Assembly (NCBI GenBank): GCA_964342815.1
Contig: CAYFHS010000005.1
Span: 88,513 to 152,512, forward strand
Direction of reading: 5' to 3'
Source: an uncultured archaeon
Lineage (GTDB): Archaea > Thermoplasmatota > Penumbrarchaeia > JASLWR01
Length of the DNA: 64,000 nucleotides
Each line of letters begins with the position of its first letter. The first letter of the stretch is position 1. A model generated the notes under the pieces. The model ran no database searches. It worked only from the letters and a program-made list of their open reading frames with translations, and was not told where the DNA came from. Positions 24,111-24,420 of the stretch are shown piece after piece. The position numbers and the translations under genes were made by a program.

Positions 24111-24420
24111 CCCCTTTTGCAATTGTATTGCCAAATGTGCGTACTTCGACGGCAAGTCGAGGCCTTTCGAGTAACTCCTCGGCAAAGCCAGGCGTGTCTT
24201 CAAGGTAACGTCCTTGAAGGCGCAGCAGAGCCGTAGGGTCTGCGTAGTGTAACGTGCGTCGTATGATACACCAGGACTCGAAAGGACTAGATGCATCTTG
24301 ATGCATCAAAGGTTTGCACAGTTGACAATTTTCGCAGAATCGCAGGGGCCGATCCTGCTGAATCGAGAACAACCGTTTCCTAAGGAAGCACCTGGACCCC
24401 AAAGGGTCTCTCGGGATAGA
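24111..24420. ncRNA. Candidate large structured non-coding RNA or structured element; not assignable to a family I recognise
   Basis: Nested helices: AATTGT(24121-26)/ACAATT(24325-30), TGTGC(24136-40)/GCACA(24316-20), CTTCGAC/GTCGAGG(24144-62), CCTTTCGAGT(24163-72)/ACTCGAAAGG(24276-85), CTTCAAGG/CCTTGAAG(24198-219), GCAGAGCC/GGTCTGC(24225-43), GTGTA/TACAC(24247-71), GATGCAT/ATGCATC(24290-307), plus 3' hairpins. No credible ORF. Confidence 0.65.

Follow-up and report, generated by a model that had tools for sequence, protein, structure and literature searches.

Several families of short, non-coding mobile repeats have been described from prokaryotes. The palindrome-associated transposable elements (PATEs) of Haloquadratum walsbyi have palindromes near their termini and no inverted terminal repeats; they do not duplicate their target, and their length leaves no room for a protein-coding gene (Dyall-Smith et al. 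2011, PMC3119063). The SMR-A repeats, of about 110 bp and up to 54 copies, also leave their target unduplicated; they enter palindromes that belong to PATEs and IS605-type elements, by a mobilisation described as 'enigmatic', and nested conglomerates of mobile genetic elements ('MGE conglomerates') are frequent in Haloquadratum (PMC3119063). Repetitive extragenic palindromic (REP) sequences, with BIMEs and REPINs, are 20-40-nt single hairpins tagged GTAG or CGTC and accompanied by RAYT transposases (PMC2817692, PMC3116915, PMC3733652). REPs have been reported from bacteria only; in Archaea only IS200-type Y1 proteins are known, and no RAYT-type protein has been reported (PMC6006769). Here we describe a 237-nt structured element in a 64,000-nt stretch of DNA (the window) from an uncultured archaeon of the Thermoplasmatota (Penumbrarchaeia, JASLWR01; assembly GCA_964342815.1, contig CAYFHS010000005.1, positions 88,513 to 152,512 of the forward strand). 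We read it, with a probability of roughly 0.78, as a conglomerate of non-autonomous mobile repeats. Its base layer would be one copy of a ~95-nt, lineage-specific element of two hairpins (P1 and P2), with a second repeat module inserted in the P1 loop and third and fourth tiers inserted in turn in a hairpin loop of that module. The repeat family is new and clade-restricted, and the type of element is one already known.

The genome that contains the window (G000; 4.35 Mb, 88.9% complete) was compared with genomes of the same genus (G001), of the same family (G003), of the same family but another genus (G002) and of another family (G005), the last with a diverged variant of the element. All of these are metagenome-assembled genomes (MAGs), and copy numbers and absences are accordingly approximate.

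Architecture of the composite element

The first-pass annotation had drawn the region as a single large noncoding RNA (ncRNA) with nested multi-way junctions, and the helices on which it relied are present in the sequence. An outer helix pairs 24127-24140 with 24316-24329 and encloses hairpins at 24144-24162 and 24290-24307 together with a perfect 10-bp long-range helix, CCTTTCGAGT/ACTCGAAAGG (24163-24172/24276-24285), which itself surrounds four inner hairpins; further hairpins lie 3' of 24334. The minimum free energy fold computed with ViennaRNA recovers essentially the same architecture. For the plus strand of 24107-24425 its energy is -122.1 kcal/mol, compared with -94.3 +/- 4.9 kcal/mol for 100 dinucleotide shuffles, none of which was as good (z -5.68), and for the minus strand it is -117.3 kcal/mol (z -4.78). 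In Rfam 15 no family matches the element; at the gathering score the sole match in the whole window is a tRNA at 45550, and at E<=10 the region 24000-24560 returned two chance-level matches only. The models for RNase P, SRP, HEARO/omega RNA, group I/II introns and the other Rfam 15 families gave no match that reached or approached the gathering score. That the element is a divergent form of RNase P or SRP RNA can be ruled out, both genes having been located elsewhere in the genome, on contigs C1 (RNase P) and C43 (SRP) rather than on the contig of the window.

Each of the major helices can be assigned to a repeat that occurs elsewhere. BLAST of the 319 nt from 24107 to 24425 against G000 and 60 relatives returned dozens of partial matches to separate sub-segments, nearly all of them in G000, G001 and G003. 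The 5' block, the P1/P2 junction block and the 3' block of a dispersed family were all located in the composite, and the covariance model R1, built from 20 G000 copies of that family, matches its 3' part. The outer helix of the annotation corresponds to P1 of the family, and the first of its 3' hairpins to P2 (Table 1). A five-way alignment leads from the minimal element to a form with an additional 57-nt module and from there to one that also carries a 101-nt insert, and each tier recurs independently elsewhere in G000 and its relatives.

The tier-2 module consists of two hairpins, CCTTTCGAG/CTCGAAAGG, which is the long-range helix described above, and GATGCATC-TT-GATGCATC at 24290-24307. It is uninterrupted in at least five same-genus copies, where the loop of its first hairpin measures 6-7 nt; several G001 loci read CCTTTCGAG-TAACGY-CTCGAAAGG, a small intact hairpin, and in BLAST several join 24126-24181 directly to 24277-24345. 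The 'perfect 10-bp long-range helix' is thus long-range because 101 nt (24176-24276) were inserted in the loop of a small hairpin. Within these 101 nt, the stem GGCGTGTC/GATACACC (24191-24198/24265-24272) encloses further hairpins and has short-looped counterparts in G001 and on G000 contigs C8 and C15, and the segment 24174-24254 is 95% identical to a G001 locus in a different context. The same tier-2 loop contains a 44-nt intermediate insert on G001 contig C103 and other inserts on G000 contigs C8 and C15. The innermost module has more copies in G001 and G003 and is found also inside the P2 loops of other element copies.

The orthologous locus of G001 bears on the history of this structure. 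There the flanking sequence (92% identical) is preserved, as are P2, the hairpins downstream and the bases with which the element begins, and 24130-24334, a stretch of 205 nt, is missing. Because the first bases and P2 are retained there, the insertion at the main locus predates the split of G000 and G001, and rebuilding or deletion has altered the interior of the element since then. With the tiers recurring alone and 205 nt lacking in G001, the reading as one RNA with nested multi-way junctions does not stand: the apparent long-range helices and junctions arise because repeats have been inserted into the loops of other repeats.

Table 1. Positions of the composite element, its parts, a second family copy and neighbouring features in the window.
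Feature	Position	Strand	Basis
Whole composite, 237 nt, expanded copy of the dispersed two-hairpin family (ends +/-2 nt, owing to A/T bases at both junctions)	24128..24364	+	Family blocks; alignment with minimal and same-genus copies
P1 5' arm, ATTGCCAAATGTGC, matching family block TATTGTCAATGGTG	24127..24140	+	Sequence, fold, family alignment
P1 apical hairpin, CTTCGAC-GGCAA-GTCGAGG, part of the minimal element	24144..24162	+	Counterpart CTCGAC-AAAAA-GTCGAG in most minimal copies
Tier-2 insert in P1 loop, 150 nt	24163..24312	+	Minimal copy joins GTCGAGG straight to TTTGCA
Tier-3/4 insert in loop of tier-2 hairpin, 101 nt	24176..24276	+	Same-genus copies read GAGTAAC-GY-CTCGAAAGG here
Innermost high-copy hairpin module, core GCAGCAGAGCCGTAGGGTCTGCG	24216..24256	+	11 further G000 copies at E<0.01
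P1 3' arm, GCACAGTTGACAAT	24316..24329	+	Sequence, fold, family alignment
Junction TTTC (family GTTC), hairpin P2 (24334-42/24350-58) and 3' tail TGAATC	24330..24364	+	Family alignment; kept in G001 ortholog
Minimal family copy, about 89-94 nt	26116..26209	+	R1, 103 bits; filled/empty comparison
TPR-repeat protein gene, start codon 22 nt from element 5' end	23072..24106	-	ORF and domain search
CNNM/CBS-domain transporter-like protein gene, between the two element copies	24533..25954	-	ORF and domain search
Single-copy hairpins downstream, outside the repeat family	24366..24420	+	About 90% conserved in G001 ortholog; no dispersed copies

The two-hairpin family, its insertion sites and its distribution

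The family layout begins with the 5' block TATTGTCAATGGTG, followed by a variable hairpin, CAGCTTGACAAT closing P1, the joint GTTC, P2 (GCGGAATCG…CGATTCCGC) and the tail TGAAT. Minimal copies measure 69-104 nt, most commonly 94 nt; they have no coding capacity and are too short for a transposase. Palindromes lie near both ends, P1 starting within 1-2 nt of the 5' end and P2 stopping 5-6 nt before the 3' end. Terminal inverted repeats (TIRs) are absent: the 5' end TATTGTCAATGG is not matched by the reverse complement (ATTCAGCGGAAT) of the 3' end, and the 3' arm of P1 lies inside the element. With up to 4 mismatches allowed, the junction block occurs 57 times in G000, about equally on the two strands, where by our own estimate ~1 would be expected by chance. 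Measured across the loop, distances in the G000 copies range from 19 to 225 nt for P1 and from 22 to 227 nt for P2, from which it follows that both loops take up extra modules. Identity is 88% in the closest pair of G000 copies and 66% in the median; the copies are old, not recent. In the clade the density is about 1 copy per 45-95 kb, and there are about 45-95 copies per genome. A further module, AATGAATCGTGAATTAGTAAATTCAC… followed by a CCTCGGAAACC…GGTTTCC hairpin, was observed inside the P1 loop of at least five G000 copies (C4:121701, C5:66345, C14:25180, C27:30043 and C79:2492).

Four filled/empty pairs could be identified between G000 and G001. One is provided by the minimal copy that separates the divergently oriented CNNM/CBS and histone-deacetylase-family genes, for which 26118-26206 is absent in G001; the other three are G001 copies absent in G000. 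In all four pairs the flanks align colinearly when the element is taken out, and insertion is at A|T. None of the pairs shows a target duplication of more than 2 bp, and the A/T bases at both junctions leave open the exact register and the possibility of a 2-bp AT/TA duplication. As judged from this comparison, the copy at 26116-26209 was inserted, or lost in G001, after the lineages split.

With up to 3 mismatches, the junction motif was found 45 times in G000, 75 times in G001 and 85 times in G003, compared with once in G002; each of the 33 further genomes of the class had 0-6 occurrences, and controls with the pattern reversed gave 0-1. Model R1 detected 82 copies in G001, 94 in G003, 64 in G005 and 0 in G002. 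A search for the exact motif in one genome per species, for 185,579 species, returned two MAGs and two short stray contigs only, the MAGs being "Thermoplasmatota archaeon ETNP2_MAG_1" (G001) and "uncultured archaeon SRP077602_co2_347" (G003). The element is restricted to a few related marine Thermoplasmatota, and in the literature searched nothing was found that links MITE-like repeats (MITE, miniature inverted-repeat transposable element) to this phylum. A viral contig with an exact 20-mer match, the only match among viral contigs, was set aside as chance, the match lying inside an open reading frame (ORF) without a match to R1, and an over-permissive 11-mer scan was uninformative.

Two further occurrences may be recorded here. 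A full copy (97 bits) lies at 2203-2302 (L133) of the 4.1-kb contig JABMSC010000134.1, which is filed as Candidatus Omnitrophota and is most likely a mis-binned Thermoplasmatota fragment. At G000 C39:4000-13500 (L110), two tandem paralogous genes for laminin-G-domain proteins of ~1000 aa each have a similar element copy ~200 nt upstream, in the same orientation, and a joint duplication of gene and repeat is probable.

The surroundings of the main locus agree only in part with their earlier description. The region had been called ORF-free, which is correct as regards real genes, while mechanical ORFs do cross it, such as one of 111 aa at 24067-24402 (-); G001 is without 205 nt of this ORF, and 205 is not a multiple of 3. 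The described contrast between a GC-rich element and AT-rich flanks is found on the 3' side (0.52, compared with 0.36-0.42 downstream) and fails on the other, where the upstream gene has a GC content of 0.47-0.50. The product of that gene, annotated as TerB-TPR, does show TPR repeats (weak Pfam matches) and has no TerB domain at E 0.01. Insertion of the element so close to the start codon has probably changed the 5' region of this TPR gene. The single-copy hairpins downstream have the forms TTCC-TAA-GGAA, GACCC-CAAA-GGGTC and TCTCT…AGAGA, and in the G001 ortholog they show loop changes and a change to U·G (plus strand). The tRNA at 45550-45633 (+), of 84 nt and 60 bits, is longer than the 71-position model, which an intron or a long variable arm may explain.

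Strand-specific constraint and competing explanations

Covariation was assessed on a MAFFT alignment of 20 G000 copies, for 25 base pairs, against 500 shuffles and with the pairing partners slid by 1-3 columns as a further control. Standard pairs are formed in 96.3% of cells, and 9 of the 25 pairs are changed on both sides; none of the 500 shuffles matched the alignment in any of five measures, and the slid controls were 30-44% paired. The homologous copies thus show real covariation. In P2, compensatory forms include GCGGAATC/GATTCCGC, GCGGTATC/GATACCGC and GCAGAATC/GATTCTGC, to which G005 adds GCAGAAACG/CGTTTCTGC and others. The wobble pairs distinguish the two strands. Read on one strand, G·U outnumbers A·C by 30:3 in G000 and by 27:3 in 32 copies from G001, G003 and G005 (one invariant U·G being left out), or 57:6 in total; a one-sided binomial test for 6 of 63 gives p of about 8e-12, a value overstated in that related copies are not independent. 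Sense matches to R1 score 49-114 bits and antisense matches at most 38 bits. The excess of G·U over A·C indicates that the fold of one strand is under selection.

Covariation and a one-strand excess of G·U are also what speaks for a function at the RNA level, with the ~95-nt elements being functional structured small RNAs or cis-acting RNA modules spread by duplication, the copy at 24 kb being a variant with expansion segments, and the fold acting, for example, in protein binding or in mRNA processing or stability. The unpaired motifs (5' ATA, joint GTTC, tail TGAAT and the invariant U·G) are kept even in the diverged G005 variant, the copies still fold despite their age, and Di Nocera et al. 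interpret the G·T pairs of REPs as pointing to a function of the RNA (PMC3733652). We nonetheless consider this explanation unlikely. Gene context was taken from a crude ORF map of 57 loci, of which 53 could be classified. In co-directional spacers, 14 copies point with the flanking genes and 16 against them, so that about half would be transcribed antisense unless the element had its own promoter; divergent spacers are common (18 copies) and convergent spacers rare (5). Inspection of the copies by eye revealed no conserved upstream sequence and no internal TATA-like motif. The orientation of the element is thus unrelated to the neighbouring genes, which makes a leader or riboswitch role unlikely, and a constraint on one strand regardless of host transcription fits the element's own propagation better than a role in host mRNAs. 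Presence and absence at orthologous sites, and the lack of the element in G002, of another genus in the same family, speak against a function that is needed, and the loops accept inserts as long as 200 nt. G·T wobble is tolerated in single-stranded DNA hairpins as well. Nothing indicates a dedicated RNA function at the main locus.

A classical MITE is distinctly improbable. Such an element would owe its movement to a DDE transposase and would leave a 2-bp target duplication (TA or AT), and the P1 palindrome would be what is left of its inverted repeats. The A/T bases at both junctions do permit a 2-bp duplication in four of four filled/empty pairs, P1 resembles a pair of inverted repeats, and nested MITEs occur in other prokaryotes. 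Against this, the true 3' end (…CCGCTGAAT) is no inverted copy of the 5' end, with ~45 nt of conserved sequence following the internal P1 3' arm; the two bases after the terminal GAA are TA in just 6 of 20 copies; the strand asymmetry of the wobble pairs would be unexpected under double-strand recognition; and no insertion sequence (IS) with the family ends was found in G000 or in the DNA fetched from relatives. An integron attC-like reading was dropped, as the R''/R' core motifs do not fit and the copies are not in cassette arrays.

A single novel large structured ncRNA specific to this locus, whether ribozyme or riboswitch-like leader, is hardly tenable in spite of the strong fold z-scores and the lack of an Rfam match, given that dispersed repeat modules account for every major helix, that the syntenic G001 spacer lacks 205 nt of the structure, that the element points away from both neighbouring genes and that the genome's RNase P and SRP RNAs sit elsewhere. 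What endures of the first-pass inference is that the region is structured, that it matches no Rfam family and that the mobile-element option, one of three it had offered, was close to the truth.

Candidate enzymes and comparison with known systems

If 24128-24364 is a conglomerate of mobile repeats, the base element could be moved in trans by an enzyme acting on one DNA strand folded into hairpins, a mechanism to which we would give about even odds. The route would be HUH-type, as in IS200/IS605-PATE, REP-RAYT or IS91/Helitron elements, and the nesting would then arise because hairpin loops are preferred landing sites. It is also possible, though on balance doubtful, that the family and its nested modules represent the first REP/REPIN-like or Helitron-like system in Archaea, moved as single-stranded hairpin DNA by an unrecognised or very divergent HUH enzyme and with loops as preferred targets, or that the ~95-nt unit is a domesticated structured RNA which selection has maintained in dozens of old copies.

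A number of results weigh against mobile repeats and are best considered together. No autonomous partner and no transposase with the family ends was found in these incomplete MAGs, and neither Y1_Tnp (PF01797) nor the TnpB zinc ribbon was found in G000, which is 88.9% complete. The Y1 transposases of G001 and G003 were rejected as partners, their end hairpins CCAG…CTGG being unlike P1 and P2 and the family blocks being absent from their flanks; Y2_Tnp (IS91-type) proteins of G001 and G005 were rejected likewise, with none of the three family blocks in the surrounding DNA that was fetched. A scan for long elements, in which a 5' block is not followed by a junction block within 600 nt, covered G000 and about 0.6 Mb of DNA from relatives and yielded, apart from a truncated 5' end in G003, only matches at chance level. 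The P1 and P2 hairpins differ from each other, whereas a typical IS200/IS605 element has matching end hairpins. There is no conserved 4-6-nt target 5' of the element, the left flanks sharing only one A. The copies are old, and the maintained pairing could also reflect a host or RNA function. Finally, the gene context rests on a crude ORF caller.

Other candidates were also set aside. An omega RNA, or an IS200/IS605 end with TnpB/TnpA, does not fit a locus whose neighbours are CNNM/CBS and TPR genes in a genome where neither Y1_Tnp nor the TnpB zinc ribbon was detected. The genes enclosed by pairs of elements on contigs C6 and C39 encode CARDB, metallophosphoesterase, phosphoribosyltransferase and laminin-G proteins, with no transposase among them. 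An IS110-type DEDD transposase, of a type that like the Y2 proteins is patchily present, gave a single match in G000, as the sole content of the 1579-bp contig C110 (L161), which is perhaps an IS left unplaced or DNA foreign to the bin.

The transposase-bearing elements seen in the relatives were as follows. An IS200-like element, ~760 bp long and encoding a Y1 transposase of 163 aa, is present at L075 1346-2108 and L074 1254-2016 (G001 and G003) and is 82% identical between the genomes; its end hairpins match each other (AACGCCAG…CTGG), TTTAC stands at its left edge and its right end reads …GTAGTTTAC. Fragments of it occur at two more G001 loci. On G001 contig C22 (L158 994-2220), the frame of a Y2 transposase is broken by one TAA, and the orthologous G000 region, C17:5370-8048, holds different DNA.

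Recognition of the composite as stacked selfish repeats removes a false lead, that of a new ribozyme-like RNA, and illustrates that insertions into loops can mimic multi-way RNA junctions, complete with good fold z-scores and even covariation. It also defines an abundant, uncharacterised repeat family with sharp ends, an A|T insertion site and strand-specific constraint in uncultured marine Thermoplasmatota, from oxygen-minimum-zone and related metagenomes. Repeat families of this kind break MAG assemblies, can serve as clade markers and alter the 5' regions of genes. The question raised is which enzyme moves TIR-less hairpin elements in Archaea, and it is the same for the haloarchaeal SMR and PATE repeats.

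Among known systems, transposons of the IS91/Helitron type make no target duplication, have no terminal inverted repeats and carry a hairpin a few nucleotides before the 3' end; Helitrons insert between A and T and end in CTRR. The present element resembles them, by description only, in its 3' end GCTGAA and its insertion at A|T, and differs in that its 5' end is not TC and that Y2_Tnp occurs only in G001 and G005, without the family blocks in the fetched DNA around it. From MITEs it is set apart by the lack of TIRs at its true ends, the lack of an autonomous element among the sequences searched and a duplication of at most 2 bp.

The family has in common with REPs and BIMEs that its palindromes are extragenic and of high copy number, that its modules form mosaic clusters, that its stems contain G·T pairs and that it is restricted to a lineage; REPs are, in addition, thought to move through single-stranded DNA with a trans-acting HUH enzyme, as is presumed here. 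The unit is nonetheless a different one, of ~95 nt and two hairpins without terminal GTAG or CGTC, GTAG being present only in the loops of some nested modules. Nor was a RAYT-like gene flanked by the element found in these incomplete genomes, and the Y1 protein of G001 and G003 matches the IS200 type and is not element-flanked.

The likeness to PATEs and SMRs extends furthest. In the absence of TIRs, the palindromes near both termini, the lack of a duplication longer than 2 bp and the lack of transposase coding, the family answers to four descriptive features of PATEs. Like PATEs and SMRs it is archaeal, is present in tens of copies per genome, shows strain-specific insertions, includes small repeats that sit in the palindromes of others and has an unclear mobilising enzyme. 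In PATEs the palindromes are like those of IS605-type elements of the same genome and are preceded by a 4-6-nt target oligonucleotide, whereas here the hairpins of the Y1 elements are unrelated and the target is only A|T. P1 is moreover unlike P2, and the two hairpins form, with the conserved unpaired motifs, a fixed covarying unit of ~95 nt. PATEs and SMRs belong to Halobacteria and the present family to marine Thermoplasmatota, and there is no sequence relation between them.

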